Assembly (NCBI GenBank): GCA_948512295.1
Contig: CAOQRA010000002.1
Span: forward strand, 25,877-89,876
Direction: 5' to 3'
Source of the DNA: an uncultured Eubacteriales bacterium
GTDB lineage: Bacteria; Bacillota; Clostridia; Christensenellales; UBA1242
DNA length: 64,000 nucleotides
Positions 10,733 to 27,055 of the stretch are shown here, piece after piece. The notes below the pieces were generated by a model. It was not told where the DNA came from, ran no database searches, and saw nothing but the letters and a program-made list of their open reading frames with translations. Numbering within the stretch: the stretch's first letter is position 1; every line of letters starts with the position of its first letter. The position numbers and the translations under genes were made by a program.

Positions 10733-10747
10733 AGTTTTCGCTCTTGT

Positions 10748-10823
10748 GCTGCTGTGGCTCAGTTGGTAGAGCAGCTGATTCGTAATCAGCAGGTCGGCGG
10801 TCCGAGTCCGCTCAGCAGCTCCA
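10748..10823 (+). tRNA. tRNA-Thr (anticodon CGT)
   Basis: Hand-folded cloverleaf. Acceptor GCTGCTG/CAGCAGC, D arm GCTC-AGTTGGTA-GAGC, anticodon arm GCTGA-TTCGTAA-TCAGC, T arm GGCGG-TCCGAGT-CCGCT. Discriminator T and encoded CCA. Confidence 0.9.
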
Positions 10824-10839
10824 TATAAACTAAGTAAAA

Positions 10840-10865
10840 AGTCTTCTTTTTCAGAAGGCTTTTTA
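10840..10865 (+). terminator. Terminator after tRNA-Thr
   Basis: Stem AGTCTTCT/AGAAGGCT followed by a T-run. Confidence 0.5.
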
Positions 10866-10877
10866 TTTGTCAAAAAA

Positions 10878-10923
10878 CACAATATACGGGGATATGTGAG
10901 ATAGTATAGCCACAATATACGGG
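10878..10923 (+). repeat. 13-bp direct repeat CACAATATACGGG x2
   Basis: Exact copies at 10878-10890 and 10911-10923, 55-100 nt downstream of the tRNA. Confidence 0.7.
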
Positions 10924-10995
10924 AAAAACGGTTTTTCAGCGGTTTTCACAAAAATAAAAAAAGTCTTCATTTTGACGTAAAGACTTTTGGAAAGT

Positions 10996-11088
10996 TTTGA
11001 TTTTTAATAAAAATAAGGCAAAAATGGGCAATTTTTACGAGAAATCAAAAATAATCAAAATTTTTTGAAAAAATCAAAAAAATCAAAA
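10996..11088. repeat. AAATCAAA octamer array (left)
   Basis: TTTGATTT at 10996-11003. AAATCAAA/AATCAAAA at 11042, 11053, 11071 and 11080. Lies just upstream of the extended -10 promoter of the ASCH gene. Confidence 0.7.
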
Positions 11089-11151
11089 TTATAGAGATTA
11101 AACAGATATAGATTGCAAAGGGTTGTGGTATAATGAGTGCAGGAGAAAAAT

Positions 11152-11544
11152 ATGAAACATATAGCAATCTTAAGGCAACCTTTTTTTGACATGGTACTAA
11201 ATGGAACGAAGACAATTGAAAGTCGTTGGGCAATGCATAGAGTTGCGCCGTATAACAAAATAAAGAAAGGCGATGAAATTTGGCTCAAGGAAACAGGGAA
11301 AGATGTCACAGCAAAAGCTATTAGTCAGAATGTGAAATTCTACGAACTAACCCCAGAAATTGTTGAGCAAATAAGAAAAGAATATGGTAAGCAAATTGGA
11401 ACAGATTATTTTGAAGATTGGCAAAGTACGCTTCAAAAAAGATATTGCACACTTATTTGGCTAGAAAAAGTAAAAAAAATTCATCCAATGAAAGTTCCAC
11501 GAAGTAATGGTGCTGGTTGGATTTGTGTGAACGAAAAAAAATAG
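11152..11544 (+). CDS. ASCH (PUA-like) domain protein
   Basis: FFDMVLNGTKTIESR and KKGDEIWLKE are typical of the ASCH fold. TGgTATAAT promoter at 11126-11134; AGGAG RBS. Confidence 0.7.
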   Translation: MKHIAILRQPFFDMVLNGTKTIESRWAMHRVAPYNKIKKGDEIWLKETGKDVTAKAISQNVKFYELTPEIVEQIRKEYGKQIGTDYFEDWQSTLQKRYCTLIWLEKVKKIHPMKVPRSNGAGWICVNEKK

Positions 11545-11577
11545 CAGTGGAGTGAACCTAAGGCTCACTTAATACCG

Positions 11578-11835
11578 CTATCTTTTTTTATTGAAATTTA
11601 TTGTTTGACTGACAAAGTCTAAGACAAAGCGAATCAATTCATAGTCGTTTAAAGATTGCAATTCAAATGTTGACTTTTCGTAATTCTTAAACAATAAACG
11701 CTGCTCGTTAGACAATGATTCATCAAGTTTTATTGCATTGTCTATAACCTTATTCATAGATTTTTTATACTCAGAATCAGAGTCAATTTTTCGGTCAGAG
11801 AATTGTTCAAAAATTATTTGCACTATATCAATCAT
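11578..11835 (-). CDS. Hypothetical protein
   Basis: 85-aa ORF downstream of, and co-oriented with, the XRE gene. Confidence 0.5.
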   Translation of the reverse strand: MIDIVQIIFEQFSDRKIDSDSEYKKSMNKVIDNAIKLDESLSNEQRLLFKNYEKSTFELQSLNDYELIRFVLDFVSQTINFNKKR

Positions 11836-11903
11836 GACACCACCTCCATGCTTGGTGGTGTTTTAACTCTTTAAAAAAAGTATTGCAAGTCTTTTCACAA
11901 GAT

Positions 11904-12248
11904 TCATTTTTTCATTTTTATAATTTGGCAAAGAGCTTCTTTTTCAGATTTTGACATGTTACGAATTAATTCCAAAAGTTCCTTATCTTCATCATATTTA
12001 GTTAAGTCATAATAAAACAACTCACTTGGAGTTATTTCTAACAAATCAATGAGGGCAAAAAGTGTTGTAGAATTTATATTGATATCACCAGCTTCAACTC
12101 TATAATACCAACTTTCGGTATATCCTAACCTTAAACTTACTTCCCTTGCCGATAAATTCCTTTTATTGCGAAAATAACCTAATCTATTAATAAGATCCTT
12201 TAACCCATTGTGATAGTCTAGTTCGGTTGTATGCTTCATATTTTTCAC
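11904..12248 (-). CDS. XRE-family helix-turn-helix regulator (candidate prophage repressor)
   Basis: HTH_XRE signature RNKRNLSAREVSLRLGYTESWYYRVEAGDININSTTLFALIDLLEITPSELF. Divergent from the + strand genes. Confidence 0.8.
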   Translation of the reverse strand: MKNMKHTTELDYHNGLKDLINRLGYFRNKRNLSAREVSLRLGYTESWYYRVEAGDININSTTLFALIDLLEITPSELFYYDLTKYDEDKELLELIRNMSKSEKEALCQIIKMKK

Positions 12249-12392
12249 CTCTTATTATATTTTAAAACGGCATACAAGTAGGTGGTTTTAATTTAATGTT
12301 GGTATTTTATAAAAATCTTTCATAAAATGTGGAATAATTTTTAATTTTATGTTATAATGCTTGTAAAATATAACATAAAAGGAAAAACTGCT

Positions 12393-12905
12393 ATGAAAAT
12401 TGCAATGGTTACAGGTCATAGACCAAAAGGGTTAAATAAAGTAATGAAGTACGGAGATTATGATGATATCCAATTTATGGAGTATGTAGAATCAATGGGT
12501 TACATTGTAGACAAACACCTAAGAGATGGCTACGATTTATTTATCAGCGGAGGAGCAATAGGTGTTGATTTAGACTTTGCAGAAATGGTGCAACATCTTC
12601 GTGGAACAAAGTATTCACATGTAAAGCTTGAAATTGCAATACCATGCGATAATCAAGATTTAAAATGGAGTCTAGACGATAAACAAAGATACAAAGAAAT
12701 CTTGGCTGATGCAGAAATTATAACTCAAGTTGGCCATAAATTTACATCTTGGTGCATGCAAAAACGAAATGAGTATATGGTAGATAAAGCAGATAAAGTC
12801 ATAGCATTTTGGAATGGAGAAGAACATGGCGGAACTTGGAACACAATTCAATATGCAAAAAAACGAGGCAAAGAGATAGAAATTATAGACTTGAGAAGTC
12901 TATAA
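12393..12905 (+). CDS. YpsA-like SLOG (DUF1273) family protein
   Basis: VTGHRP, ISGGAIGVDLDFAE and KRNEYMVDKADKVIAFWNGEEHGGT are colinear with the Bacillus YpsA architecture. Confidence 0.7.
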   Translation: MKIAMVTGHRPKGLNKVMKYGDYDDIQFMEYVESMGYIVDKHLRDGYDLFISGGAIGVDLDFAEMVQHLRGTKYSHVKLEIAIPCDNQDLKWSLDDKQRYKEILADAEIITQVGHKFTSWCMQKRNEYMVDKADKVIAFWNGEEHGGTWNTIQYAKKRGKEIEIIDLRSL

Positions 12906-12964
12906 GAAAGAAAACATTCCATTTTGGCTAAAAATGGTGTATGCTATTAATGGAGATTTTAATC

Positions 12965-13540
12965 ATGAAAAACTATAATGGACGAACTAGATGCCGTACG
13001 CAAGTACAGCTAGAAATGTCTGATCTAGTGACTAAAAAAGAGTCAGTAGCAGACAAAACAGCGACTGCACAAGGAGTCGCAAAGGCTAATCATAAGCCAT
13101 ACAAAGAAACCAATATTATAAAAGATGAGCAAGCAGAACTTGACTTGCCATTGCAAGTGCCGGAAGATTCTAGTGAATTGTTTGTCATAACTAAGGTAAA
13201 AAAATTGGCTGCCTATGTGATAACGGTTACAGAGAAATCACCTAAACGATTTCGTGCTGTTTTTGTCAATCGTATGCAAAACTATTGTCTTGACTGCCTA
13301 GAATATTTGATTGAAGCTAACAGCTTAAGATTAGATAACACGGAAAACATACGAAAACGAAAAGATTGTCAACACAATGCGTACATGAAACTTAAATTAT
13401 TAGGCTACATGTCATTTTTATCACTAGAAAGCGAATGCATATTGAAAAAACAATATGAACAGATATCATTGCAAGTGGCAGATAGCATAAATCTACTTGT
13501 CGCTTGGAGAAGAAGTGATGCCAATCGAATTGGCAAATAA
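12965..13540 (+). CDS. avd: DGR accessory variability determinant (Avd-like four-helix bundle) with an N-terminal extension
   Basis: C-terminal ~120 aa (KSPKRFRAVFVNRMQNYCLDCLEYLIEAN ... QISLQVADSINLLVAWRRS) matches the Avd / 23S-IVS-protein pattern. Sits directly upstream of TR. The start could also be 12941. Confidence 0.7.
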   Translation: MKNYNGRTRCRTQVQLEMSDLVTKKESVADKTATAQGVAKANHKPYKETNIIKDEQAELDLPLQVPEDSSELFVITKVKKLAAYVITVTEKSPKRFRAVFVNRMQNYCLDCLEYLIEANSLRLDNTENIRKRKDCQHNAYMKLKLLGYMSFLSLESECILKKQYEQISLQVADSINLLVAWRRSDANRIGK

Positions 13541-13597
13541 CAACGGATTAACGCGGTGACGCTTTAATTAAGGTAAGATTGATTATGGTTAGTGGCT

Positions 13598-13702
13598 TTT
13601 GGCTGCGCTCGGCCTATTCTAAAAATAATGCTAACAAAATAAATTATGACGGCGACCTTAACAATAATAATGCTAACAAAACCGTCCTAGGCCTGTGTCC
13701 CG
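13598..13702 (+). repeat. DGR template repeat (TR)
   Basis: 105 nt, homologous to 15253-15356. Asn-rich (AAT/AAC) when read in the VR frame. 13 of 14 substitutions versus VR fall on its adenines. Confidence 0.85.
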
Positions 13703-13918
13703 ATTTGCCTTTGAAGAACAAACAAGGTTTGTTAAAAAACAACCAGAAGTGGTCAATATCAAGTGAATTGATCGAGTGTGTAAGGCAAAGGAATCTTACT
13801 CTTTTCTAGTAACTTACCTAAAGTACTAGAAGAAAACGACCATCTCGACAACCAACGCGAAAGTTTTGGAAGTTTACCGCAAGGGAGATGGTCAAATTTA
13901 ATAATACAAGGAGTGGCT

Positions 13919-14944
13919 ATGCTGAAAGAGGCTTTTACATTTGAAAAATTGCTAACTGCACATAAAAGATGCAGAAGATCTAAGCAACACAAGACAGAAA
14001 CCATTTCTTTTGAAATAAATTTATCTGCAACACTAGTAGAATTGTCAAAAAGGTTATTAAATATGACCTATAAACCGGGTAAGTATAAAGAATTTAAAAT
14101 TTTTGAACCAAAAGAGAGAACTATTGAAGCCTTATCATATAAAGACAGAGTTGTGCTAATGGCACTTTGCAGCAACATTATTGAACCGAAAGTCGAAAAA
14201 TACTTGATATTTGATAATGTAGCATGTAGAAAGAATAAAGGTACTCTTTTTGGTATAAAACGATTGGAAGGTTTTTTACATGATTATTATAGAAAATTTG
14301 GGCATAAAGGGTATTTTTTGAAATGCGATATAAAAAAATATTTTCAAAGCATTGATCACAACATGCTCATTGAAAAATTGAAAAAAACCGATTTAGATAA
14401 TGAAGACTTATTGATAATTAAAACTATTATTGACAGCAAGAATGCTGACAGCGGGGTAGGACTCCCTATCGGCAATCAAACAAGTCAATGGTTTGGTTTG
14501 TTTTACTTAAACACAATAGACAGACTTATAAAGGAAAAATTGCAAATAAAATATTATGTTCGCTATATGGATGATATGATATTAATTCACCACGATAAAG
14601 AATATTTAAAGTTTTGCAAAAAAGAAATACAAAGATGTGCTGAAAATGAGTTGCACCTTAAACTAAACAGTAAAACACAAATTGGAACACTTCAAAATGG
14701 AATAGATTTTCTGGGATTTCATCATACACTTTGCGAAACAGGAAAAGTAAAAAGGTTCTTAAGAGGGCAAGCAAAACTAAGAACAAGACGAAAAGTAAAA
14801 CATTTAGCACAATTAAAGAACTCAAAACTAATAACAAAAGATAAGTTAAATCAGAGATTAAATGCCTTGAAAGCGCATGTAATACATTCAAATGCTAAGA
14901 AATTTTACTTAAATTTAACATATAAATACCATTTGCCTAGTTAA
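13919..14944 (+). CDS. DGR-type reverse transcriptase
   Basis: RT motifs include the DGR hallmark LPIGNQTSQ and the catalytic YMDD (YVRYMDDMILIH). AAGGAG RBS. Confidence 0.9.
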   Translation: MLKEAFTFEKLLTAHKRCRRSKQHKTETISFEINLSATLVELSKRLLNMTYKPGKYKEFKIFEPKERTIEALSYKDRVVLMALCSNIIEPKVEKYLIFDNVACRKNKGTLFGIKRLEGFLHDYYRKFGHKGYFLKCDIKKYFQSIDHNMLIEKLKKTDLDNEDLLIIKTIIDSKNADSGVGLPIGNQTSQWFGLFYLNTIDRLIKEKLQIKYYVRYMDDMILIHHDKEYLKFCKKEIQRCAENELHLKLNSKTQIGTLQNGIDFLGFHHTLCETGKVKRFLRGQAKLRTRRKVKHLAQLKNSKLITKDKLNQRLNALKAHVIHSNAKKFYLNLTYKYHLPS

Positions 14945-14958
14945 TTTTTCAAAAAGTA

Positions 14959-14987
14959 TTGCAAAAATTGAAAAAATGTGTTATCAT
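14959..14987 (+). promoter_or_regulatory. Promoter of the VR-bearing gene
   Basis: TTGCAA (14959-14964), 17 nt, TATCAT (14982-14987), preceded by TG. Confidence 0.5.
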
Positions 14988-15017
14988 ATTTAATGAATAA
15001 CATAGGAGGCAACCGCT

Positions 15018-15344
15018 ATGAAATGGACAGATTTAGTAGAAAGAGTTCGAATATCAAACACAGATGAAGATCAAAATACTGGTAATTCATCATTTGATAC
15101 ACAAGATTATGTGTATTTGGACTCTCGTGATGAAGTTAAAAATTGGCAAGCCAATCAAAAGGCAGCAGCTATTACAGACTGGGCATTGATGAATGGCGGT
15201 TTTCACAAATGGGATAGAAAAGCACCAAATGGTGGAAGATGTGTCACCAGTATTTGGCTGCGCTCGGCCTATTCTAAAAGTAATGCTACCAAAGCGATTA
15301 TGACGGCGACCTTTTCACTCATTATGCTCACTAGACCGTCGTAG
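15018..15344 (+). CDS. DGR target module (C-type-lectin/FGE-like fold with VR), currently frameshifted at its 3' end
   Basis: ...DWALMNGG...GGRCVTSIWLRSAYS enters the VR. AGGAGG RBS. The tail after 15294 is out of frame relative to TR (see findings). Confidence 0.7.
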   Translation: MKWTDLVERVRISNTDEDQNTGNSSFDTQDYVYLDSRDEVKNWQANQKAAAITDWALMNGGFHKWDRKAPNGGRCVTSIWLRSAYSKSNATKAIMTATFSLIMLTRPS

Positions 15345-15356
15345 GCCTGTGTCCCG
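15253..15356 (+). repeat. DGR variable repeat (VR) with IMH-like 3' end
   Basis: 104 nt. Identical to TR except at 13 TR-adenine positions, a 1-nt gap and one C/G difference 16 nt from the 3' end. Confidence 0.85.
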
Positions 15357-15387
15357 CTTTACACCTTAATCTTTCATCTTTTCTCTC

Positions 15388-15400
15388 GGCGCGAAGCGCC
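15388..15400 (+). other. GC hairpin downstream of VR
   Basis: GGCGC-GAA-GCGCC, 32 nt past the VR end. Confidence 0.4.
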
Positions 15401-15469
15401 TCGCGTGATTTTGGAAAGGTTGGTGTTGTTAAAGCTAGCAACGGAGATATCATTTCCCACACGATTCAG

Positions 15470-17173
15470 ATGGGGGAATATCCTAAAACAAGAGTAGATT
15501 CAAGAGAAAGAGAAAAATTTGAACAACAATTAAAATCTGGTAAAATAAGAAAAACCGGAAAACAATATTCAGGCTATCGCAAAGATGATGGCTCTTTTGT
15601 CATGCATGATGAATATGAGATTGGTGGGCAAAAATATGTTCGTGTTTATACAAAGCGAGCAGAAGATGGAAACTACTATAACGATGGCACAAAGATGGCT
15701 GATTCTGGAACATGGGAATGGGTAAAAGTTGAACCTGTTGTTTGGCGTGTTAGAAACTGGGATGAACTACCAACTTCAATAAACCCAAAAGGAAATGGCA
15801 GGGCAAAATTTATTGATATTCGAAGCGAAGAAGCCATTATGAGCGGAATTCCATTCTATCCAGATTATGGAGATGATAGAGGTCGTGACACGATGTGGCA
15901 AAATAGTCCAATTCGTGCATTCTTTAATGGGTATGACCTACATAGAGAAATTGATCGTGGAAATGGAAATAAAAAATATAAAAACGAAGAAAGCTTTAAT
16001 TTTAGCGGAAAAGGATTGTTTTCTGAAATATTTGATGGGGCAGAATTATCTCAAACAGCACAAAATATTCAAGAACAAAATGAAGAATTTGAAGCCCCAA
16101 ATCCATATGGTTTCGTTTATGATGACCTAACAAACGATGAACTTTTGAAATTGTATATAAAATCAAATGCAAGCATCTTCTTGCATGGTCCTTCTGGTGT
16201 TGGTAAATCTGGACGAGTAAAACAAATTGATCCAACCGCAACAAGAATTACACTTCGTCCACAGATGAACCCAGAAGAAGTGGATGGAACTCTCGATAGA
16301 GAAACTGGACAATATATACCACCACTTTGGTATACACAACTATGTGAAAAATGTAAAGCAGAACCAGATAGAAAGCATGTATTGTTTATTGATGAGCTTA
16401 CAAATGTTAAACCAACAGTACAAAGTTTAATTTATTCAATAGTTTTAGATCGTGCAGGAAAAGACGGCTTGTGGCCACTTCCAGATAATGCTGTAGTAGT
16501 GGCGGCTGGAAACGAAAGTGCAGACAACCTAGCAGCTTATCCGCTGACAAATGCCTTGTTCAGAAGATTTAGTCATATTTATTATGAAGTAGATAAACAA
16601 TCATGGCTTGACTGGGCAACTGGAATAAGCAAAGTAACAAAGCAAGAACATGTAGAGCATGACAAAACTCCAAGAGCAAGAATTCATCCTGCAATAGTTG
16701 CGTTTGTAATGAGTAGAGATGACGGAATCTTGAACCAAGAACTTGACGAAGAAAACCCACACATCGTTACAGACCCTCGTAAATGGGAAATTGCAAGTCA
16801 GGTGTTATATTCAACAAAGAATCCAAAGGCTCTTGCGCCTGCAATCGGTGAAGAACTTACTGCAGACTTTACTGATTTTGTGCAAAATATTCAATTGTCA
16901 GTAGAAGATGTGGTTAAAGGAAGATATAACGAAAGAGATTTCGTAGAAATGGCAATAGACAGAAAGTTGTCAACCCTTCTTGGGCTAGTGACAGCGGACG
17001 AAAAGAACCTTGGCGTTGTTCGTGGATTTATACAAGAACACCTCGGAAAAGAGATTTTAGCAACTTACGATTCACTTTGGATAAGAAACGATCCAGAAAG
17101 AGCGCAAATAATTGCTGAAACACCAATTCAATTTTTAGATGAGGAGGCCATAAATGGAAAAGCTTTTGAATAA
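15470..17173 (+). CDS. MoxR-like AAA+ ATPase (AAA_5 type) with an N-terminal beta-rich module
   Basis: Walker A LHGPSGVGKS, Walker B HVLFIDELTN, sensor VVVAAGNE, NALFRRFSHI. No SD before ATG 15470, and the frame is open upstream to 15335. Confidence 0.8.
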   Translation: MGEYPKTRVDSREREKFEQQLKSGKIRKTGKQYSGYRKDDGSFVMHDEYEIGGQKYVRVYTKRAEDGNYYNDGTKMADSGTWEWVKVEPVVWRVRNWDELPTSINPKGNGRAKFIDIRSEEAIMSGIPFYPDYGDDRGRDTMWQNSPIRAFFNGYDLHREIDRGNGNKKYKNEESFNFSGKGLFSEIFDGAELSQTAQNIQEQNEEFEAPNPYGFVYDDLTNDELLKLYIKSNASIFLHGPSGVGKSGRVKQIDPTATRITLRPQMNPEEVDGTLDRETGQYIPPLWYTQLCEKCKAEPDRKHVLFIDELTNVKPTVQSLIYSIVLDRAGKDGLWPLPDNAVVVAAGNESADNLAAYPLTNALFRRFSHIYYEVDKQSWLDWATGISKVTKQEHVEHDKTPRARIHPAIVAFVMSRDDGILNQELDEENPHIVTDPRKWEIASQVLYSTKNPKALAPAIGEELTADFTDFVQNIQLSVEDVVKGRYNERDFVEMAIDRKLSTLLGLVTADEKNLGVVRGFIQEHLGKEILATYDSLWIRNDPERAQIIAETPIQFLDEEAINGKAFE

Positions 17174-17534
17174 AATAGAAAAATTGTCCGCAGTATCGCC
17201 AGTCCTCGTAACGGGGATAAAGAAGGAGTGTTTTAAAAATGCAGAGATTCTGCCAGCAAATATTGCTTCTAAAGATTTGGGCATTGTAAATACAAGCAAA
17301 GGACTAAAAGCACCTAAGTGGTTTGTGCGTGTTATGAAAGATGATATTAGCACCATAGTCATAGACGGAATTGACAGCATTGACACCGAGTCTCAAGAAA
17401 AATTTTATGAGTTATTAAAATATAAGACAATTTCAAGCATTGAGTTTTATAAAGAAATAAAAATAGTAGTTTTGTACGAAGATTTGAAAAAAGTATCTCC
17501 TAGCATATTAAGTCTTTGCCAAATCATGAAGTAG
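17154..17534 (+). CDS. Small protein with degenerate P-loop-like motifs
   Basis: AGGAGG RBS; overlaps the upstream stop by 20 nt. VLVTGIKKEC and TIVIDGIDSI...QEKFYELLK resemble decayed Walker A/B and lid elements. Confidence 0.55.
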   Translation: MEKLLNKIEKLSAVSPVLVTGIKKECFKNAEILPANIASKDLGIVNTSKGLKAPKWFVRVMKDDISTIVIDGIDSIDTESQEKFYELLKYKTISSIEFYKEIKIVVLYEDLKKVSPSILSLCQIMK

Positions 17535-17541
17535 GTGCGAA

Positions 17542-19047
17542 ATGGCAGAATTCGATCTTACAACAATAAAAAGAAAGATGCTTAGAAAATACCCAGCGTT
17601 TGGGTCTACTATTTCATCCGTAAAATATCAAATTGTCGGAAACAACCATCCGGTAAAAACTGCTGCAACAGATGGCAAAACTATTTATTGCAACGAAACA
17701 TACCTTGGAACATTATCAGAAGATCAGCAAGTGTTTGTCTTTGCACATGAAGTTTGTCATATTGCATTAAATCATATTATGCGTAGCGAAGGAAAAGATC
17801 CAGAACTTTGGAATATAGCCACAGATGCAGTTATTAATGAACATTTGCAAAAAGATGGCTTGCCAATGGTTGAGGGCGGTGTGGATATTAAAGGCGCACT
17901 CAAATACGATGCCGAAGAACTATACCAAAAATTGCTTGCAGAAAAGCAAAAACAACAAGCAGAGCAGAATCAGCAACAGCAAGGAAGTTCTGCTGAGCAA
18001 AAACAAGAGCAGCAAGGACAAAACGGACAACAGCAGAACCAACAACAAGGGCAAGGACAAGGTTCTGGTTCAAGCGAACAAGATAAGCAAGAATCTGGGC
18101 AAGATCAATCTCAGCAAAATAGCCAAGGTCAAGGACAAGGAAACTCTGAAGAAACTGGAGAGTCAAGTTCACAAGGTGCTGGTGGAAACGGCGAAGAACA
18201 AGAGAATCACGATGTTGGACATGACGCTCACTCTCTTTGGGAAGAAGCTATAAAAGAGGCAAAAGAAGAAAAAGAGAAGAAACAAGGAAAAGGCAAAGGA
18301 CAAGAAAAACAAGATGAGTCCCAAGATGAAGCCGAGCAAGAAGTAATTTCTGAAAAAGAAGCCTTTGAAAAGAATGATGAAGAAAAGATTAAGCGTGCCG
18401 AAGAAATTATGAGCAAACTATCTACAGGTCGTAGAGGTGTAGGTGGAAGTTCTCAAGAAGTTTATTTTGATGATATTGGAAAAGCTGGGAAGGCTGTGGT
18501 CAACTGGAAAAAACTTTTACAAAGAACTCTAGAATTTGAAGATGAAACATGGGGGCATAAATTCTCAGATAGATCCAACGGCTATGCCGCAAGAATTGAA
18601 GATGTGGAATATGACGAACAAGCAGAATCTGAAATAATTTTGGACACAAGCGGATCTGTCAGCGTTGGGCTATTAAAGAGTTTCTTAAGACAAGTAAAAA
18701 CAATACTGAAAAACTCTTGTATTAGAGTTGGTACTTTCTCAGATAGTTTCCATGGCTTTGTGGAGATAAAAAAAGAGTCCGATATTGACAATTTGAGAAT
18801 AAGAGTCGGTGGTGGAACAAACTTTGATGCCGCAAGTCGTGCATTTTCAAAACGCAAAGATGTGAATAGAATTTGCTTTACAGACGGACAAGATGGTGGC
18901 GATGCTGAGATAAGAGAAAAACGAAAAGACATAGTTTGGATTAGTTTTGAAAATCCAGATTTCAAGCCAGATGATGGAAAAGTTATCTTTGTTCCGGCTA
19001 GCCAAATTCAAGAATTCAAAGTTCAAGAAGAAGAAAGAGAATTATAA
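17542..19047 (+). CDS. Metallopeptidase-like (HExxH) plus vWA domain protein, DUF2201-type
   Basis: N-terminal FAHEVCHIALNH...ATDAVINE. ~130-aa Q/G/S/E low-complexity linker. C-terminal vWA with MIDAS ILDTSGSVS. Confidence 0.8.
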   Translation: MAEFDLTTIKRKMLRKYPAFGSTISSVKYQIVGNNHPVKTAATDGKTIYCNETYLGTLSEDQQVFVFAHEVCHIALNHIMRSEGKDPELWNIATDAVINEHLQKDGLPMVEGGVDIKGALKYDAEELYQKLLAEKQKQQAEQNQQQQGSSAEQKQEQQGQNGQQQNQQQGQGQGSGSSEQDKQESGQDQSQQNSQGQGQGNSEETGESSSQGAGGNGEEQENHDVGHDAHSLWEEAIKEAKEEKEKKQGKGKGQEKQDESQDEAEQEVISEKEAFEKNDEEKIKRAEEIMSKLSTGRRGVGGSSQEVYFDDIGKAGKAVVNWKKLLQRTLEFEDETWGHKFSDRSNGYAARIEDVEYDEQAESEIILDTSGSVSVGLLKSFLRQVKTILKNSCIRVGTFSDSFHGFVEIKKESDIDNLRIRVGGGTNFDAASRAFSKRKDVNRICFTDGQDGGDAEIREKRKDIVWISFENPDFKPDDGKVIFVPASQIQEFKVQEEEREL

Positions 19048-19052
19048 ATATT

Positions 19053-19082
19053 AAGACCTATGGTAGAACATAGGTCTTTTTT
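19053..19082 (+). terminator. Rho-independent terminator ending the DGR/ATPase/vWA operon
   Basis: AAGACCTATG-gtagaa-CATAGGTCTT followed by a T-run. Confidence 0.75.
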
Positions 19083-19126
19083 ATAACAAAAATTGGGAAC
19101 GCGCAAGGTGAAAATAATACATTGGT

Positions 19127-19154
19127 TTGAATTTAACACAATTTTAGGTATAAT
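19127..19154 (+). promoter_or_regulatory. Near-consensus sigma-A promoter
   Basis: TTGAAT (19127-19132), 16 nt, TATAAT (19149-19154). Confidence 0.6.
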
Positions 19155-19160
19155 AAAGGT

Positions 19161-19316
19161 ATATAAAACGCCAAAAATCCTAATTATTCGCACTTTGTTT
19201 GTTATTGGAGATTTTATATTAAACCACGATGACCAATAGAAGTCAAATGGAGTGATGTAAAAGATGAGTCTCTGATGATTCCAACTGTCTTCAAGTTGGG
19301 TTGTCAGAGATTTTTT
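19161..19316 (+). ncRNA. Candidate ~155-nt non-coding leader/sRNA ending in a terminator hairpin
   Basis: No ORF longer than 4 codons. Nested hairpin TCTCTGA..CCAACT-gtcttc-AAGTTGG..TCAGAGA (19269-19310) followed by T6. Confidence 0.3.
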
Positions 19317-19398
19317 CGTCATGATAAGACATAAGTTGCAAACCGACTGGACGAAAGGGTGTCTACTCGAAAAATTTATAATAAGGGGGTACAGTTAG

Positions 19399-19659
19399 AT
19401 GAATGAAAATCAAAGATACCAGATAAGAAGAACAACCGTGGATGCATACATTTTGTATTGCTTGATGGACGGTAAAATTCACAAACGAGAAGAGCTTGCG
19501 AGTAGAGCAGATATTTCCACAAGATCAGTTCAACGGAGTATTGAAAGGCTGGGCGTTTACTTTATTATACATACATTCCGTGGCGGTGAAACTAAAGGTG
19601 GAATTTATTTGGACGAGCGTTTCATTTACTCCGACAGAACAAAAGAGATAGAAAGATAA
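19399..19659 (+). CDS. Winged-helix DNA-binding protein (paralogue 1)
   Basis: DGKIHKREELASRADISTRSVQRSIERL ... FRGGETKGGIYLDE. GGGGG RBS. Confidence 0.7.
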   Translation: MNENQRYQIRRTTVDAYILYCLMDGKIHKREELASRADISTRSVQRSIERLGVYFIIHTFRGGETKGGIYLDERFIYSDRTKEIER

Positions 19660-19667
19660 AGAACAAA

Positions 19668-19697
19668 GGACGAAGAAAAAAGGCTTCGTCCTTTTTT
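19668..19697 (+). terminator. Rho-independent terminator
   Basis: GGACGAAG ... CTTCGTCC followed by T6. Confidence 0.7.
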
Positions 19698-19835
19698 AAT
19701 TGCCAAAATGACAAAATAAGACGCAATAAAACAAAATAAGCAACCGCCAGACCAGAGCGTTCGCAAGAACGCATGACGAACTGAACTGGCAAAATTGACT
19801 TATCAAAATCACAGAAAAGGGGGTGAGGGTAGCAG

Positions 19836-20198
19836 ATGGATTTGCGACGTGCAAGCATTACAGCAGACATACTGAATGTGCTGACTGACGGCAAAATTCA
19901 CAAGATGCGTGAAATCGCAGAAATCGTTGAAGTCAGCGAAACGACAGTACGCAATCACATAAGATCGTTGTCCTACCGCTACCCAATAGAAACTTTCCGT
20001 GGTGGCGAAAAAAAGGGCGGTGTTTATTTAGAAAAAGACTACATCATCAGTGGTCACATTTTCACCAAAGCCGAACTACAATTCGGTGCAAAGGTTTTTG
20101 CTTCACTAAGCAGAGCCGAACTGGATGAAGATGAACAAAAGGTTCTGGACACTTTTATTCGAATATTCGCAGCTCACACAGAAAAGGAGATTTTATGA
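19836..20198 (+). CDS. Winged-helix DNA-binding protein (paralogue 2)
   Basis: DGKIHKMREIAEIVEVSETTVRNHIRSL ... FRGGEKKGGVYLEKD, colinear with the 19399 ORF. Confidence 0.7.
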   Translation: MDLRRASITADILNVLTDGKIHKMREIAEIVEVSETTVRNHIRSLSYRYPIETFRGGEKKGGVYLEKDYIISGHIFTKAELQFGAKVFASLSRAELDEDEQKVLDTFIRIFAAHTEKEIL

Positions 20199-20377
20199 GA
20201 AAAACTAAAATCACTATCTGGCTTGAAGAAGGAAAGCCAACAAGAGTGAAGACAACCAAGAACGAAGAATTTTTTGTGGATGACCTCTCGCAGTTTTTTC
20301 AAAAAGCAAGCCAGTGCAAGGAGGCGAAGCATGTGGCTAGACAAAAAAAGAATTGCTCAGGTTGTAAAAGACAATGA
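20195..20377 (+). CDS. Small hypothetical protein
   Basis: 60-aa ORF whose start overlaps the upstream stop (ATGA). Confidence 0.4.
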   Translation: MRKTKITIWLEEGKPTRVKTTKNEEFFVDDLSQFFQKASQCKEAKHVARQKKNCSGCKRQ

Positions 20378-20576
20378 CATGACATACTCCGAAGTTGCAA
20401 TCGAACTCGGACTCACACTTGAAGAAACAATGAAAATTCTTGACGGCAAAAAGTCGGCGAATAGAAAGCAAGCAGAAACATTATTAAACCTCTTTGGAAT
20501 TTGGAACATCTGTTGGGCTATGAAAGACAATTGGAGGTGGATGCGATATGCAATCGAAGCAATCCTTGCCAATTAA
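20331..20576 (+). CDS. Small HTH-like protein
   Basis: AAGGAGG RBS before ATG 20331. MTYSEVAIELGLTLEETMKIL is helix-turn-helix-like. Confidence 0.5.
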   Translation: MWLDKKRIAQVVKDNDMTYSEVAIELGLTLEETMKILDGKKSANRKQAETLLNLFGIWNICWAMKDNWRWMRYAIEAILAN

Positions 20577-21993
20577 AGTCAAGCCATATAAGCACCAGCA
20601 AGATGCAGTAGAGTTTGCCACAAAAGTGTTAGGCTACAACGGCGAACCAGCCAAGAGCAAAAGCGTTGCAATGTTGGCGGAAATGGGAACTGGAAAAAGC
20701 CTTATAACAATAGCACTTGCTGGGCAACTCTGGAAAGAGAAAAAAATTCGCAGAATGCTGGTTGTCGCGCCACTCAGTATAACTGGGGTGTGGAAAGAAG
20801 AATTCGAAAAATTTGCGGATTATGAATTTCGGCTAACGGTGCTTGAAGGCACAACTGCTGAGAAAGTTCGCAAGTTGCAGTGTTTGGATGCAGCTCTTGA
20901 TGTACTCCAAGTTGCTGTCATTAACTATGAGTCAGCATGGCGAATGGAAGGTGAACTAGCGTTTTGGCGACCAAACTTGATAGTCTGTGATGAAAGCTCA
21001 AAGATTAAGAATCCAAATGCAAAGCAATCGAAAGCATTGCATAGGCTCGGAAGAGTCGCAAAACACAATGTCATTTTGACTGGAACACCAGTAACAAACA
21101 ATCCGCTCGATTTTTACAGCCAATACAAATTTTTAGATGAAAAGATTTTCGGTTCGTCATTCTATGTTTTCAGAGCAAAGTACGCAATACTTGGGGGATA
21201 CGGATGCCACCAAATTGTAGGTTATAAGAATTTGGACGAACTGACAAAGAAGGCACATGAGATAGCGTACAGAATCACAAAAGCAGAAGCACTTGACCTA
21301 CCGGAACAAGTGGACACAACAAGGTATATTCAACTGGAGTCCAGAGCAGAGGCGATATACCGCATGGTCGAAAAAGAGAGTGTTGCAGAACTCGAAAGCG
21401 GTGAAATCACAGCAACAAATGTCCTGACGAAACTGTTAAGACTAAGCCAAATCACTGGCGGTTTCCTGCGTAGTGATGCAGATGAAAAAGCAGAAGAAAT
21501 CAGCCACGCAAAAATGGACGTGCTTGAAGAAATCTTGGAAGAATGCCTTGACAGCGGAAAGAAGCTCGTGGTCTTCGCAAGGTTTATTCCGGAGATTGAT
21601 GCAATTGAGAAAATGCTGAAATCCAAGGGAGTGGGTTACGCACTTATAAAAGGCGAAGTCAAAGACAGAGCGGAGCAAGTTGAAAAATTCCAAAAATATC
21701 CACGCATTAAAGTCTTCATTGGACAACTTCAAACAACTGGAATGGGATTGACATTGACCGCCGCCGATACAGCCGTGTTTTATTCGCTGTCGTACAACTT
21801 TGCAGATTACGAACAAGCCAAAGCAAGAATCCACCGCATTGGGCAAAAGAACAACTGCACCTATATCCACCTCATTGCCAAAGGAACAATTGACGAAAGG
21901 GTTATGGATGCACTGAAAAACAAAAAGAACATTGCCGACCTTGTTGTCGACAACTGGAAGTCGCTGTTTAAAAAAGGAGCAAAGTATGAATGA
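20548..21993 (+). CDS. SNF2-family DEAD/H helicase
   Basis: Walker A MGTGKS, DExx box VCDESSKIKN, LTGTPVTNN, and helicase-C motifs (QLQTTGMGLTLT, QAKARIHRIGQ). Confidence 0.9.
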   Translation: MQSKQSLPIKVKPYKHQQDAVEFATKVLGYNGEPAKSKSVAMLAEMGTGKSLITIALAGQLWKEKKIRRMLVVAPLSITGVWKEEFEKFADYEFRLTVLEGTTAEKVRKLQCLDAALDVLQVAVINYESAWRMEGELAFWRPNLIVCDESSKIKNPNAKQSKALHRLGRVAKHNVILTGTPVTNNPLDFYSQYKFLDEKIFGSSFYVFRAKYAILGGYGCHQIVGYKNLDELTKKAHEIAYRITKAEALDLPEQVDTTRYIQLESRAEAIYRMVEKESVAELESGEITATNVLTKLLRLSQITGGFLRSDADEKAEEISHAKMDVLEEILEECLDSGKKLVVFARFIPEIDAIEKMLKSKGVGYALIKGEVKDRAEQVEKFQKYPRIKVFIGQLQTTGMGLTLTAADTAVFYSLSYNFADYEQAKARIHRIGQKNNCTYIHLIAKGTIDERVMDALKNKKNIADLVVDNWKSLFKKGAKYE

Positions 21994-22387
21994 AAAAGTG
22001 ATTTTTGAAATCTCAGACACTTACCTTGAAGCAAGGAAAAACAAAGATGAGTGCGAGCAAAGACTGAAAGATGCAAACGCAGTCTTGGAAGATGCAGAAA
22101 AGAAACTCATTGAAGCAATGACAAATGATGAATTAGACAGTTTCAAAAGAAACGGTGTGCAGATCAGCCTTGTGAACCGAAACTTCATTTCAGCGGAAGC
22201 GGAACGCAAAGACGAACTTTGGGCAGAGATGAAAAAGCAGGGCTATGAACATTTGTTCTCAATCAATGCCAACACCTTGAATGGAGAGGTGCGTAGGCTC
22301 ATTGAAGAGAATGATGGCAAACTTCCAACATGGCTGGAAGGCTTGATTAAACAATACGAAAAACCATCAATTAGAATCAAAAAATAA
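21986..22387 (+). CDS. Hypothetical phage replication-module protein (coiled coil)
   Basis: AAGGAG RBS; ATG overlaps the SNF2 stop. Confidence 0.6.
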   Translation: MNEKVIFEISDTYLEARKNKDECEQRLKDANAVLEDAEKKLIEAMTNDELDSFKRNGVQISLVNRNFISAEAERKDELWAEMKKQGYEHLFSINANTLNGEVRRLIEENDGKLPTWLEGLIKQYEKPSIRIKK

Positions 22388-22402
22388 AGGGAGCATAAAT
22401 CA

Positions 22403-23107
22403 ATGGAAAATAACAAAAACGAAGTTGCAGTTGTCAACGAAAATGCATTTGCAGTAAGCACAGACCTCAGCGCAAGCCTTGGCGAAGAAATGGCTGGACT
22501 GAGTCTCACATTTGACAGAATCAAAGTGCCATCTGGTGGCGGAATTGCCTATGAAGTGCCAAGCGACAATCCGGACGAACCGGACCTCAAAAAAGAAATC
22601 AAGGCGGTGATTTTATATCATCATCCAGTTTGTTCGTACTACAAAGAAAAATACAACGGAAGCAACGACAGTCCGGACTGCTCATCATTTGATGGCATCT
22701 GCGGAATTGACAAAGAAACCGGCGAAATCAAATCATGCAAAGAATGTGAATTCAACAAGTTTGGAAGCGGAGAGAATGGGGGAAAGGCGTGCAAGACAAA
22801 ACGCAGAATTTTCTTATTGCTCGAAAACAGTGCAATCCCAGTCATTTTCAATTTACCAACAACAAGCCTTGGAGATTTTTCAAAGTATATCATGAGAATT
22901 GTCGGCAAGGGCAAAAAGTCATATCAAGTTGTGACGAAATTCACTTTGAAGAAAGAGCAAAATGCTGGCGGAATCACATACAGCAAAGTTGTGATAAACA
23001 TTGACAGAGAACTCACAGACGAAGAATTGGCATCAATCAAACCATTGACTGAACAAGTCAAGGCTATTGCACAAACAATGAAACAAGTGGAGAGCAGTGA
23101 CGAATAA
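22403..23107 (+). CDS. Hypothetical Cys-rich phage protein
   Basis: GGGAG RBS, 234 aa. CxxC-type cluster (CKECEFNKFG...GKACK). Confidence 0.6.
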   Translation: MENNKNEVAVVNENAFAVSTDLSASLGEEMAGLSLTFDRIKVPSGGGIAYEVPSDNPDEPDLKKEIKAVILYHHPVCSYYKEKYNGSNDSPDCSSFDGICGIDKETGEIKSCKECEFNKFGSGENGGKACKTKRRIFLLLENSAIPVIFNLPTTSLGDFSKYIMRIVGKGKKSYQVVTKFTLKKEQNAGGITYSKVVINIDRELTDEELASIKPLTEQVKAIAQTMKQVESSDE

Positions 23108-23136
23108 ACATTGCTCCAAAATGAAAGGAGCATAAA

Positions 23137-25107
23137 ATGGGAATATTTGACCAAATAAAGAGTGCTGTGTCGGTAAAAGAAATCGTGGAAATGTACCATG
23201 CACCACTGAACAGAAACAACAAGGTCTGCTGCCCATTTCACCAAGAGAAAACTGCAAGCCTTAGCATTGACATAAATCAAAACATGTGGAAATGCTTTGG
23301 CTGTGGACTTGGTGGTGATGGCATAAGGTTTGTTGCGAAGCTCAAAGGAATAGAAGACATAGATGCAGCGAAGATGATAATCCAAGATTTCCACCTCAAC
23401 ATTGACTATGAAAGTGAATCGTCAAAAACACCACAAGGCGAAATGCGAAACTATATCAGAGAATGCCAAAAGCATGTTGAAGAAACAAACTACTTTGAAC
23501 AGCGAGGCTTGGCAAGCACGACTATCAAAGAGTTTGGGCTAGGCTACGATCCTAAGGACAAATCGGTTGTGATTCCTTATTCGCCAAGCATGGTGTACTA
23601 TCAAAAAAGATTTGTAAAAGACAAGAGATTCTATAAACCGGACAGCGAAAAATACGGACACGAGCCAATCTGGCATCCAGAGAATTTGGAGTTGAAAGAC
23701 AAAACTCCGGTCTTCATTGTGGAGAGTCCGATTTGTGCCATGAGTATAGCTCAATACGGTGGGAAAGCCGTGGCATTATGCGGAACAAGCAATGTGAGCC
23801 GATTTGCGGACTTTGTTGCCACGAAAAAGCCACATGGCACACTTGTCATCTGTATGGACAATGATGAGCCGGGAAAGAAAGCAGAAAAGGAACTTGTTGC
23901 AAGATTCAAGGCAATGAAGCAAAAGCACATTGTCTATAACATTGCCGGGGAGTGCAAAGATCCAAACGAACTATTGCTGAAGAGTGCCAACAAACTGTGC
24001 AAGAACATAGCACTAGCCAAGAAAGAAGCAATCCTAAACAGCAGAGAGCGAGAAGACATTATAAGCCTTGAAGCTCTGTGCAACCTTGGAGTAAAGCCGA
24101 AAGAATTCATTGTCGAAAACATGATTCCGGAAGATGCACTTTGTGTGCTGGCGGCAGCGAGCAAGGTTGGAAAATCTTGGTTTGTGTTGCAACTCGCCAT
24201 TGCCATAATCTGCGGAGAAACATTCCTTGAAGAGCAAACGCATCCATGCTCGGTGCTTTATTATGCACTCGAAGACAGCGACTCACGAATGGTGTATCGA
24301 AAGAATAAGTTGACAAATGGAAAAGAGATTCCAAAGAATTTGTACATCAAGATGGAAACAAAGACTTTCGACACTGGACTGCTTGATGAAATTGAATACT
24401 ATCAGAACAAAATTCCAAATCTAAAACTTGTTATCATCGACACATTGCAAATGGTTCGTGGTACACCAAGACGAAACGAGGGAGCCTACGCATTCGACTA
24501 CAGAGAAATGTCGGTTTTGCGAAAGTTCTGTGCAAACAACAAAATAACAATTTTATTGGTGCATCACAGCAGAAAGCAAGAAGATGACGGCGACACATTC
24601 AACATGATAAGTGGCTCAAACGGCATCATGGGTGCAAGCGATGCAGCTTTGTTTATTAACCGCAAAAAAAGAATGGACGAAAACGAACCATTCAAAATGT
24701 CTCAAACTGGGCGTGATGTCAAACAGAGCGAAAGGCTCATTGAGAGAAACGAAGACGGACATTGGAGCAAGGTTGCCAACGCAGAAGAGAAAGCAAGAAA
24801 ACAAGAAGAGCAAGCATTCAACAACAGCAAGGTTGTGCAGCTCATTTTAGCACTCATGAAAAAGCAACCAAGTGGTTGGAGCGGAACAACAAGGGAATTT
24901 GTCAAAGAAGGCATCAATTTATTCAACGAACACATTGGAACAGAGTCCGAAGTTGGCAAAGAGATAAACCGCATTGAGTTGGAACTATTGAGAAAACACA
25001 GGATAAATCATGAATGGAAACGCAGTAGCGGTGGAAATCGCCACTTTTTCAAGCCAAGCAGTCCGCCATCACTGTTTAATTACCATGGAGAAGATGACGA
25101 CAACTAA
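23137..25107 (+). CDS. Bifunctional DNA primase / RepA-like P-loop helicase
   Basis: CHC2 zinc finger (CCPFHQEKTASLSI...WKCFGCGLGGD), Toprim (VFIVESPICAMS...DNDEPG), and a C-terminal AAA_25-like Walker A AAASKVGKSW. Confidence 0.9.
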   Translation: MGIFDQIKSAVSVKEIVEMYHAPLNRNNKVCCPFHQEKTASLSIDINQNMWKCFGCGLGGDGIRFVAKLKGIEDIDAAKMIIQDFHLNIDYESESSKTPQGEMRNYIRECQKHVEETNYFEQRGLASTTIKEFGLGYDPKDKSVVIPYSPSMVYYQKRFVKDKRFYKPDSEKYGHEPIWHPENLELKDKTPVFIVESPICAMSIAQYGGKAVALCGTSNVSRFADFVATKKPHGTLVICMDNDEPGKKAEKELVARFKAMKQKHIVYNIAGECKDPNELLLKSANKLCKNIALAKKEAILNSREREDIISLEALCNLGVKPKEFIVENMIPEDALCVLAAASKVGKSWFVLQLAIAIICGETFLEEQTHPCSVLYYALEDSDSRMVYRKNKLTNGKEIPKNLYIKMETKTFDTGLLDEIEYYQNKIPNLKLVIIDTLQMVRGTPRRNEGAYAFDYREMSVLRKFCANNKITILLVHHSRKQEDDGDTFNMISGSNGIMGASDAALFINRKKRMDENEPFKMSQTGRDVKQSERLIERNEDGHWSKVANAEEKARKQEEQAFNNSKVVQLILALMKKQPSGWSGTTREFVKEGINLFNEHIGTESEVGKEINRIELELLRKHRINHEWKRSSGGNRHFFKPSSPPSLFNYHGEDDDN

Positions 25108-25124
25108 ATTGGTGGCAGAAAAAG

Positions 25125-25224
25125 CACCTACACACCATACACACCATACACTAAAAAATTGCTACCGACACTATTTAACATAATATTCATAAGATACACA
25201 AAAGTGTAGGGAGTGTATGTAGTG
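25125..25224. repeat. Cluster of (C/A)TACAC motifs in both orientations
   Basis: Tandem CACACCATA x2 (25131-25148). TACAC-AAAA-GTGTA palindrome (25195-25208). GTGTAGG/GTGTATG on the right side, with an AT-rich centre. Confidence 0.6.
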
Positions 25225-25256
25225 CAAGGACATTTATTGCCACAAAAGGAGAATAA

Positions 25257-25538
25257 ATGAAAGAGCAAGATTTGGTTGACAAGATAAAAGCCTACCTTAG
25301 CAAACAGCCGAATACATTCCACTGGAAAGAACACGGTGGAGTTTATGGAACTGCTGGAATCCCAGACATAATTGTTTGCTATAAAGGCAAATTTGTAGGA
25401 CTTGAATGTAAAGCAAAAGGAAGAAAGCCAACAGTTCTCCAGCAGATAACAATCAATAAAATAAACCGTGCTGGTGGAATCGCCAAGGTTGTTTATGATT
25501 TGGAAGAAGTCAAAGAGTTATTGAAAAATCTTGATTAA
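25257..25538 (+). CDS. VRR-NUC domain nuclease
   Basis: GIPDIIVCYKGKFVGLECKAKGRKPTVLQQ matches the VRR-NUC catalytic core. Confidence 0.85.
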   Translation: MKEQDLVDKIKAYLSKQPNTFHWKEHGGVYGTAGIPDIIVCYKGKFVGLECKAKGRKPTVLQQITINKINRAGGIAKVVYDLEEVKELLKNLD

Positions 25539-25546
25539 AAGGAGAA

Positions 25547-26369: not shown

Positions 26370-26478
26370 AAATGTGAACGAAACACTTTCAAAACTGCAC
26401 GAAATACTTTCAAAAACCCACAATAATAGAAAGTGAACGGCAAGCGAGAGCGAAAAAGCCTTGAAAGGAGAAAGTGGA

Positions 26479-26844: not shown

Positions 26845-26910
26845 GGGGTGTCAAATCTCTACAATAAACGAAAGGAAGACCGAGGCGGAAGTCTCACACG
26901 AATTTTCGCA

Positions 26911-27040: not shown

Positions 27041-27055
27041 AAAGGAGAATTTTAT

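Follow-up and report, generated by a model that had tools for sequence, protein, structure and literature searches.

The diversity-generating retroelement (DGR) of Bordetella phage BPP-1 (mtd) transfers sequence from a template repeat (TR) to a variable repeat (VR) with changes specific to adenines, and has the accessory protein Avd, a reverse transcriptase (RT) with an IGxxxSQ motif, a GC-rich 3' boundary and a target-recognition hairpin whose GC-rich stem is found 4-34 bp downstream of VR (Guo et al. 2011, PMC3240598). These features recur in the locus described here, an Avd-TR-RT cassette followed by its target gene (15018-17173) in a 64,000-nt stretch of contig CAOQRA010000002.1; this whole stretch is called the window, and coordinates are positions within it. 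The target gene is natively a single gene of 718 codons which encodes a MoxR-like AAA+ ATPase with VR near its N-terminus, but in this genome it is present as a 108-codon fragment (15018-15344) and a 567-codon open reading frame (ORF; 15470-17173). Our reading is that this is very probably a DGR-made null allele of a native variable-domain-ATPase gene, a tolerated and repairable by-product rather than a programmed switch.

The locus differs from BPP-1 in several respects. The BPP-1 TR has AAC codons, which cannot become stops, whereas the TR here has three AAA codons; transfer in BPP-1 is 3'-anchored, whereas between near-isogenic pairs here the differences are confined to the 5' half of VR; and the hairpin of this locus, with its 5-bp stem and GAA loop (GCGAAGC core), is translated. 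DUF6273, which has been described as lectin-like, is known to carry VR in the DGR targets of gut phages, as in Faecalibacterium prophages, Toutatisvirus and the 'tentaclins' (PMC11792537; bioRxiv 10.1101/2024.10.15.618418; PMC10743442). Like the present locus, these DGRs belong to temperate phages of gut Firmicutes with an Avd-TR-RT cassette, have VR at the C-terminal end of DUF6273 within a W-x-R-S ... G-x-x-P-A-L frame, and diversify adenines only. VR there occupies the C-terminus of virion, receptor-binding or decoration proteins. Here, in contrast, the DUF6273-like module, which matches profile positions 55-171 only, is the N-terminal part of an AAA+ ATPase that is encoded in the early region and has no obvious signal sequence, and both the hairpin and the sequence resembling the initiation of mutagenic homing (IMH) element lie inside the coding sequence.

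The VMAP ternary systems of cyanobacteria and gammaproteobacteria (Kaur et al. 2020, PMC7159879; Dore et al. 2024, PMC10907252) likewise combine a DGR-varied ligand-binding domain with a MoxR-type AAA+ ATPase and a von Willebrand factor A (vWA) domain, and have been proposed to act as intracellular hypervariable sensors in a conflict system. These are cellular systems linked to multicellular bacteria with VR at the vWA C-terminus (FGS/CLec type), whereas here VR is fused N-terminally to the ATPase, its vWA partner has a metallopeptidase domain (DUF2201_N), and the module resides on prophages of gut Clostridia with relatives in metagenome-assembled genomes (MAGs) labelled as gut Alphaproteobacteria. 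No VMAP component was identified at the locus in searches whose models did not include VMAP, and a 126-aa ORF next to the target gene was without a family match. A NorQ/MoxR-class ATPase next to a metallopeptidase-vWA protein is also seen in the MoxR AAA+/metallopeptidase-vWA pairs of jumbo phages (Iyer et al. 2021, PMC7824862) and in the NorQ/NorD remodellers; the jumbo-phage pairs are proposed virion-assembly chaperones with no hypervariable domain and no DGR, whereas here the ATPase is encoded in the early/replication region and has a DGR-varied N-terminal domain. A global survey found VRs to be near-universally C-terminal, which was explained by cis elements needing freedom from coding constraints (PMC8144416). 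The target described here goes against both the rule and its explanation, having an N-proximal VR and a hairpin inside the coding sequence. The unusual feature is the class of target, a cytoplasmic, phage-encoded MoxR-like ATPase with an N-proximal VR, and no description of this family was found in the literature searched.

The native target gene and its two lesions

With both lesions repaired, the 718-aa translation has as its best match a protein of the same length (P0001, 98% identity, 100% coverage), encoded by an uninterrupted ORF on L001, which is the same prophage within another host background (98.4% identity across window 10744-27173). The repaired query is also covered to 96-100% by more than 100 further proteins with lengths of 700-780 aa, and more than 100 homologues keep WLRS at around residue 80, G-x-C-P at around 110 and Walker A at around 390. 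The 90% cluster of P0001 holds at least 12 distinct 718-aa alleles, which differ only at residues coded by TR adenines. Translation signals agree with a single gene: the ATG at 15018 is preceded by AGGAGG eight bases upstream (15004-15009), while the ATG at 15470, from which the downstream ORF is called, has no Shine-Dalgarno sequence within 5-13 nt, in line with the first-pass annotation (the nearest GGAG lies ~20 nt upstream), and its codon, that of Met152, is a Phe codon in most homologues (HTIEFGEYPK). A search between both ORFs for a promoter, terminator or ribosome binding site gave background-level consensus matches only, with no terminator in 15345-15470.

Structure prediction and profile searches point the same way. 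AlphaFold2 gives residues 1-340 high confidence, followed by a disordered linker (341-358), and residues 1-345 modelled alone are predicted to form one rigid unit (pLDDT 90, pTM 0.90). With a profile of the N-terminal region, 278 clusters (E<1e-30) were matched across positions 2-341 in one continuous piece; they include stand-alone proteins, ATPase fusions and giant proteins. Because of this one-stretch match and the predicted rigid unit, the VR module is not a free-standing 108-aa protein. The first-pass annotation had proposed that the target reads through into the ATPase as one protein of ~718 aa, and had suggested a look for intact-frame variants in relatives and a check on whether the VR module and the ATPase share one ORF in orthologous prophages; the at least 12 intact alleles, the more than 100 homologues and the uninterrupted gene in L001 bear the proposal out. 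In the native state a single 718-aa protein contains both the VR module and the ATPase, and gene callers report a 108-aa stub and a 567-aa 'ATPase' starting at an internal Met because VR carries a TAG and a 1-nt deletion.

The TR (13598-13706) reads WLRSAYSKNNANKINYDGDLNNNNANKTVLGLCPD and contains the three AAA (Lys) codons, while VR (15253-15360) covers codons ~79-114 of the target. Aligned with an A-tolerant scoring scheme, TR and VR span 109 and 108 nt respectively and show 15 substitutions, 14 of which are at TR adenines; the remaining one, TR C13687 to VR G15341 (Leu to Val), is common to the window and one near-isogenic prophage, L003 (GCA_948790855.1), only. In the TR reading frame (WLRSAYSKNNANK...GLCPD), the alignment contains both of the lesions claimed by the first-pass annotation. 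One is a 1-nt deletion at 15293-15296, opposite TR 13639-13643, which is absent from L003 but present in L089, a contig from another assembly. The most parsimonious interpretation is loss of TR T13640, all other changes there being at adenines, with loss of one A plus a T to C change as the alternative. The other lesion is an in-frame TAG at 15332-15334, which arose from the TR AAA codon at 13678-13680 through two adenine substitutions and is shared with L003.

Because of the deletion, the annotated ORF reaches the out-of-frame TAG at 15342-15344 with the tail ...KAIMTATFSLIMLTRPS, and translation found the end where it had been described. The corrected frame is open from 15335 (TVVGLCPALHLNLSSFLSARSASRDFGKVGVVKASNGDIISHTIQ), is the frame of the ATG at 15470, and continues through the 15470 ORF as had been claimed, with the next stop only at 17171-17173. 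Recoding of the TAG or a suppressor tRNA was also considered, and was ruled out because TAG is an ordinary stop that ends nine prophage ORFs and tRNA-Thr is the sole tRNA present. The target allele in this genome is null, and all factual observations of the first-pass annotation on it were confirmed.

Retroelement activity and probable partial homing

The cassette and its target are encoded on the forward strand, in the order Avd (12941-13540), TR, RT (13913-14944) and target, and the gene directly 3' of the RT gene is the only target of the DGR; a search of the window for a second VR, for example in the tail fibre gene at 47493-49256, found none. The Avd-like gene matches the PHROG family phrog_3206 ('Avd protein of DGR', E 3e-16), with a weak match to Pfam bAvd (E 8e-4, 20.4 bits vs a threshold of 40), and is 100% identical in L001 and L003. 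The RT (Pfam RVT_1, E 1e-16) has its hallmark motifs (IGNQTSQ at residue 186, YMDD at residue 218), is intact, and is 100% identical to the RT of L001. The TR is identical in the window, L001, L003 and a further copy of the prophage, L002, while VR is different in each of the four, and across 20 related TR/VR pairs 326 of 737 A sites are changed, with few changes at other bases. The DGR is complete and active.

Homology between TR and VR ends in a GC-rich, IMH-like stretch (GGCCTGTGTCCCG, 15344-15356), after which VR (GCTTTACACC) and TR (GATTTGCCTT) diverge. At position 15347 the window has GGCCTG where most alleles have GGCGTG, and most intact alleles accordingly read G-V-C-P vs G-L-C-P in TR, which suggests that information transfer may end, at its 3' side, before or after 15347, depending on the event. 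A GC-rich DNA hairpin (GGCGC-GAA-GCGCC, 15388-15400) is located 28 nt downstream of VR, inside the ORF, where it codes for S-A-R-S-A-S, and is presumed to be the target-recognition element of the DGR. DGR-bearing relatives have stems at the same position with compensatory changes (CACGC/GCGTG, CGCGC/GCGCG, CGCAC/GTGCG). All DGR-linked loci of the Clostridia type, as well as their closest relatives, have the hairpin, while none was found in family members without an RT homologue in the 6-kb flank. Its position is homologous in L007, L022, L023, L028, L031, L032, L036 and L046, and the encoded peptide ISARSAS is conserved, so that one stretch is both cis element and coding sequence. The loop here is GAA (3 nt), vs the 4-nt GRNA of the published consensus. 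The core sequence GCGAAGC is known as a very stable DNA mini-hairpin.

Comparison of near-isogenic prophages shows where the most recent changes are. Over 9.5 kb, the window differs from L003 by nine substitutions and one indel within 15278-15295, and by a single-nucleotide polymorphism (SNP) at 20673; the differences in 15278-15295 are all at TR-adenine positions, and the deletion is inside an 18-nt patch of fresh A-site substitutions which is essentially the sole difference between both prophages. In its 3' half, with the TAG and G15341, VR is the same in the window and in L003 (VR at 3783-3891), while L003 has another 5' half and no deletion. As L003 has the same TAG with another 5' half, homing rewrote the 5' part only and left the TAG standing. 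We infer that homing on this target has been recent and partial, and the expectation of the first-pass annotation that a single further homing event would replace both lesions fails on this comparison.

The same pattern, a common 3' half of VR with a different 5' half, is seen between L001 and L002 and between the proteins P0125 and P0126. Three independent pairs differ in the 5' half alone, and no pair shows the reverse. The conversion tracts therefore seem patchy and 5'-biased. In the simplest account of the order of events, the allele would already have been null through the TAG, a later DGR event would have rewritten only the 5' half of VR, and the 1-nt loss would have arrived with that patch, in the window lineage only.

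Lesions in related loci and rival explanations

Related loci were obtained from a scan of one genome per species (79 loci) and from a metagenome pattern scan (four loci). In approximately 24, Avd-TR-RT immediately precedes the target, arranged as in the window, and ~45 have no RT within 6 kb. In the RT-less loci, the fusion is one open frame wherever the best N-module and ATPase matches share one gene. Broken targets were found in 7/24 DGR-linked loci vs 0/45 loci without RT (Fisher p = 3e-4), with the breaks only inside VR. In addition to the window with its 1-nt loss and TAG from AAA, these are L003 and L036 (both TAG from AAA), L031 (loss of 1 nt), L075 (TGA opposite a TR TAA, and TAA from AAA), L077 (TGA opposite a TR TAA) and L081 (TAG from AAG, and a gain of 2 nt). 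In-frame VR indels were present in L007 (+3 nt) and L028 (-6 nt). The RT and Avd are intact in all broken loci and the remaining ~600 target codons are open, hence the lesions are recent and local rather than old decay. The view of the first-pass annotation that the lesions are of a kind that a DGR makes is well supported by these loci, since both lie in VR and such lesions recur only in DGR-linked relatives, and both were probably made by the DGR itself.

Four related TRs contain an in-frame TAA, in L007 (2266-2375), L070 (4564-4677), L075 (4459-4568) and L077 (4507-4617). With such a TR even unmutated copying gives a null target, and a simple model puts stops in ~60-68% of homing events; in L075 and L077, VR reads TGA at the codon where TR has TAA. 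The loci L070-L084, from MAGs labelled Alphaproteobacteria, Azospirillum or proteobacterium (L083 is labelled Alistipes finegoldii), have the same Avd-TR-RT-target-DUF2201 order with a VR of the type W-S-A-S...A-R-P-A-L, and the presence of the module in gut MAGs labelled Alphaproteobacteria means that it crosses phyla. The pattern scan of JGI metagenomes for VR returned four related intact alleles, none of which is from this phage.

To what extent nulls are expected from the template itself was estimated with a stop model based on a per-adenine rate of 0.44 over the 737 sites and the observed spectrum. The model predicts at least one stop in ~22% of full homing events from this TR, because TR has three AAA codons. 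In the literature, AAC and AAT codons are noted to avoid stops, and AAA and AAG are expected to give 6-7% stops per codon (~1% with the BPP-1 RT; PMC12875486). Nulls make up ~2-3 of ~33 contigs for this phage (among 15 cluster members listed), which is below the ~22% expected under no selection. A null frequency below this naive expectation agrees with selection that keeps the gene intact in most lysogens.

The allele of the window is repairable in principle, as the RT, Avd, TR, GC-rich boundary and hairpin are all intact, although repair would need a conversion tract that also covers the 3' half of VR. Adenine mutagenesis can turn the Lys codons (AAA) retained in TR into stops, and as nulls are about as frequent as, or rarer than, the no-selection model predicts from these codons, they have the look of a by-product. 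Most likely, diversification yields such nulls as by-products that are tolerated, and they are not part of a programmed switch.

Several points weigh against a DGR-made null of this kind. The C to G change at 15341 is not at an adenine and the deleted base is probably a T, so neither is classic adenine mutagenesis. The stop-rate model leaves selection and context bias aside, and the BPP-1 RT makes stops from AAA or AAG at only the ~1% given above. Conversion of the 5' half only is opposite to the 3'-anchored BPP-1 model, and recombination between VR alleles could give the same 5'-half pattern. As the site is hypervariable, the 1-nt deletion may be an artefact of the consensus or of the assembly; assemblers do fail here, as L002 has a 10-N gap at the VR edge, and L089 may stem from the same reads as the window. 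Finally, there is neither a PADLOC match nor a solved relative of the N-terminal region, and the biochemical role would follow from families only.

The rival that survives best, albeit as an unlikely one, is the OFF/ON switch of the first-pass annotation, in which the DGR turns the ATPase sensor OFF through VR stops or frameshifts and ON again, besides diversifying it. The Lys codons of TR (TAA in some relatives) would then be kept for a tuned null fraction, for example as an escape from self-reactive variants. Null VR alleles do recur in six independent lineages with RT and Avd intact, the DGR is still active on the null allele, and near-identical prophages hold both ON and OFF alleles, with a mutator that is local and active; no OFF-to-ON event was seen among them, and the TAG has outlasted at least one later homing event. 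Lys codons are at conserved TR positions across the family, next to the four TRs with in-frame TAA, but this conservation may merely reflect structural needs. The null frequency, at ~2-3 of ~33 contigs (15 cluster members listed), is lower than the ~22% expected without selection and points to purifying selection against OFF. As stated, an adaptive switch is unsupported, with no reversion observed and nulls at or below the no-selection model.

An assembly artefact, in which mixed intact VR variants were joined into a chimeric or mis-joined path with a false deletion, a false TAG or both, is very unlikely. VR is hypervariable in nature and the window and its relatives come from metagenome-derived assemblies, but the separately assembled Logan contig L089 (run ERR4121975) equals window 13412-15371 exactly with both lesions included, which gives an identical haplotype through the whole VR in two separately built assemblies, and the TAG and G15341 are also in L003, another assembly. 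In favour of an artefact, L089 ends 30 nt after the variable site 15341, as would be expected of a branch in a k=31 graph if the sample also contains other VR alleles. Against it, in-register joins of a chimeric kind are improbable because the variable sites are closer together than usual k-mer lengths, a 1-nt deletion is not a product of De Bruijn joins, and similar VR stops and indels occur in six other species-level genomes. The gap in L002, which also speaks for an artefact, is a 10-N scaffold gap (2230-2239, corresponding to window 15243-15247) exactly at the 5' edge of VR, and the 94-aa and 567-aa ORFs called there are an assembly artefact which mimics a broken target. Taken separately, the deletion has a small chance of being an artefact, and the TAG a lower one.

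That these are two genuine genes, with the ATPase translated from ATG 15470, or an old pseudogene of a dead DGR, is hardly credible: both in the window and in L003, ORFs of 105-108 aa and 567 aa are called, and the Pfam DUF6273 match is limited to residues 4-118, but all close and distant homologues have a single ORF, ATG 15470 has no Shine-Dalgarno sequence and is a Phe codon in homologues, residues 1-340 behave like a single structural and evolutionary unit, and outside a very recently changed VR the gene equals functional alleles bar a few SNPs, with RT, Avd and TR intact.

Domains, gene neighbourhood and possible function

The target's N-terminal region (residues 1-340, 15018-16040) consists of two modules, a DUF6273-like module with VR (residues 4-118) and a beta-rich module (residues ~135-340). 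Residues 4-118 match Pfam DUF6273 with 30.4 bits (threshold 23.5) over profile positions 55-171 of 172 only, and the match drops under the E 0.01 level when the full-length protein is the query. A Foldseek search of the PDB with the model of residues 1-345 gave nothing better than E 0.15 and no solved C-type-lectin structure (Mtd, TvpA and others), while the best matches in BFVD were predicted DUF6273 phage proteins (E 1.4e-3). With no solved structural relative, the lectin-fold assignment rests on the literature: the label given by the first-pass annotation holds as far as the partial DUF6273 match and the published statements on DUF6273 carry it, but Foldseek gave it no solved C-type-lectin relative.

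The second module (residues ~135-340; listed as window 15135-16040) contains the motifs FGEYPK, W-x-V-E-P-I-x-W and MWQNS-x-IRA-x-LNG, which we take to resemble the N-terminal third of DUF6273. The second module may thus be the missing N-terminal third of DUF6273, moved by a circular permutation, although Pfam gave no match on residues 135-345 and thus does not detect it. The two-module region is also found in giant proteins (P0145, 4282 aa; P0276, 4237 aa) and, apparently stand-alone, in P0135-P0147 (~340-500 aa), some short ones of which may be contig-end fragments. Conversely, P0008-P0017 (786-847 aa; ~67% ATPase identity) are without the variable module and have an N-terminal repeat region and two tandem ATPase domains. 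P0002 and P0092 (loci L022-L036) have very similar N-terminal variable regions (the first ~370 residues) on two AAA+ ATPase lineages that are only ~30% identical to each other, which indicates shuffling of sensor and motor domains.

The MoxR-like AAA+ ATPase domain (16130-17173) has a Walker A motif GPSGVGKS (16187-16210) and a Walker B motif LFIDEL (16382-16399). Its best Foldseek matches are to NorQ (E 1.4e-5, probability 1.0) and it matches phrog_1297 (E 1e-38); the Pfam AAA_5 score is under threshold here (19.6 bits vs 22) and above threshold in homologues. The target gene end overlaps by 20 nt with a conserved ORF of 126 aa (17154-17534), which adjoins the ATPase in many loci (26-75% identity by tblastn) and had no family match in Pfam, PHROG or PADLOC searches. 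It is followed by a gene for a protein with a putative N-terminal Zn-metallopeptidase (HExxH) and a C-terminal vWA-like domain (17542-19047; Pfam DUF2201_N, E 3e-31, and DUF2201, E 2e-10), a partner that is kept downstream of the target across the family. PADLOC gave no defence-system family match for P0001, the 126-aa ORF or the DUF2201 protein. There is no obvious signal sequence at the target N-terminus (no predictor was run), and the target is a cytoplasmic protein of the early/replication region.

Window 12941-19047 is an early-region module of a temperate siphovirus-like prophage which spans ~10.7-55 kb. A tRNA-Thr gene (10748-10823) lies beside the point where identity to L001 begins (10744), and a large serine recombinase (serine integrase) is encoded at 53200-54804. 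Two DNA methyltransferase genes (27541-29106 and 32532-33896, the latter with a ParB-like N-terminus) are both 5' of the terminase gene (34545-36143). Directly upstream of Avd is a YpsA/SLOG-family gene (12357-12905; Pfam YpsA, E 6e-20), which is not kept in related DGR loci. A megablast search with 12900-19100 against 50,697 GenBank phages gave no match, and a scan of IMG/VR with the family profile gave two distant ATPase relatives only and no orthologous phage.

From the families alone, the ATPase would form a hexamer with the variable binder present six times on it, and together with the vWA-metallopeptidase would remodel or cleave an intracellular ligand caught by that binder, for which a host-defence protein or a rival-phage protein are candidates. 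A wider proposal is that a temperate-phage DGR runs an intracellular 'adaptive' binder-ATPase-vWA-metallopeptidase module, with a binding domain diversified by the DGR, that captures and processes host-defence or rival-phage proteins and is reversibly silenced by the same retroelement via VR stops and frameshifts, with the Lys and TAA codons of TR setting the null fraction and the patchy, 5'-biased tracts letting both VR halves evolve at different rates; we regard this proposal as doubtful.

For annotation, the consequence is that a 718-aa DGR target has been filed as a small hypothetical protein and an 'AAA family ATPase' in this phage and several relatives, and such split annotation hides the ATPase as the diversified protein. 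The recurring VR stops and indels with intact machinery are natural evidence for the cost of hypermutation, and the conversion tracts confined to the 5' half bear on how the cDNA is integrated. If the module indeed serves phage-host conflict as a programmable binder-remodeller, phages would have in it a counterpart to the DGR-linked MoxR-vWA sensors that have been proposed for multicellular bacteria.

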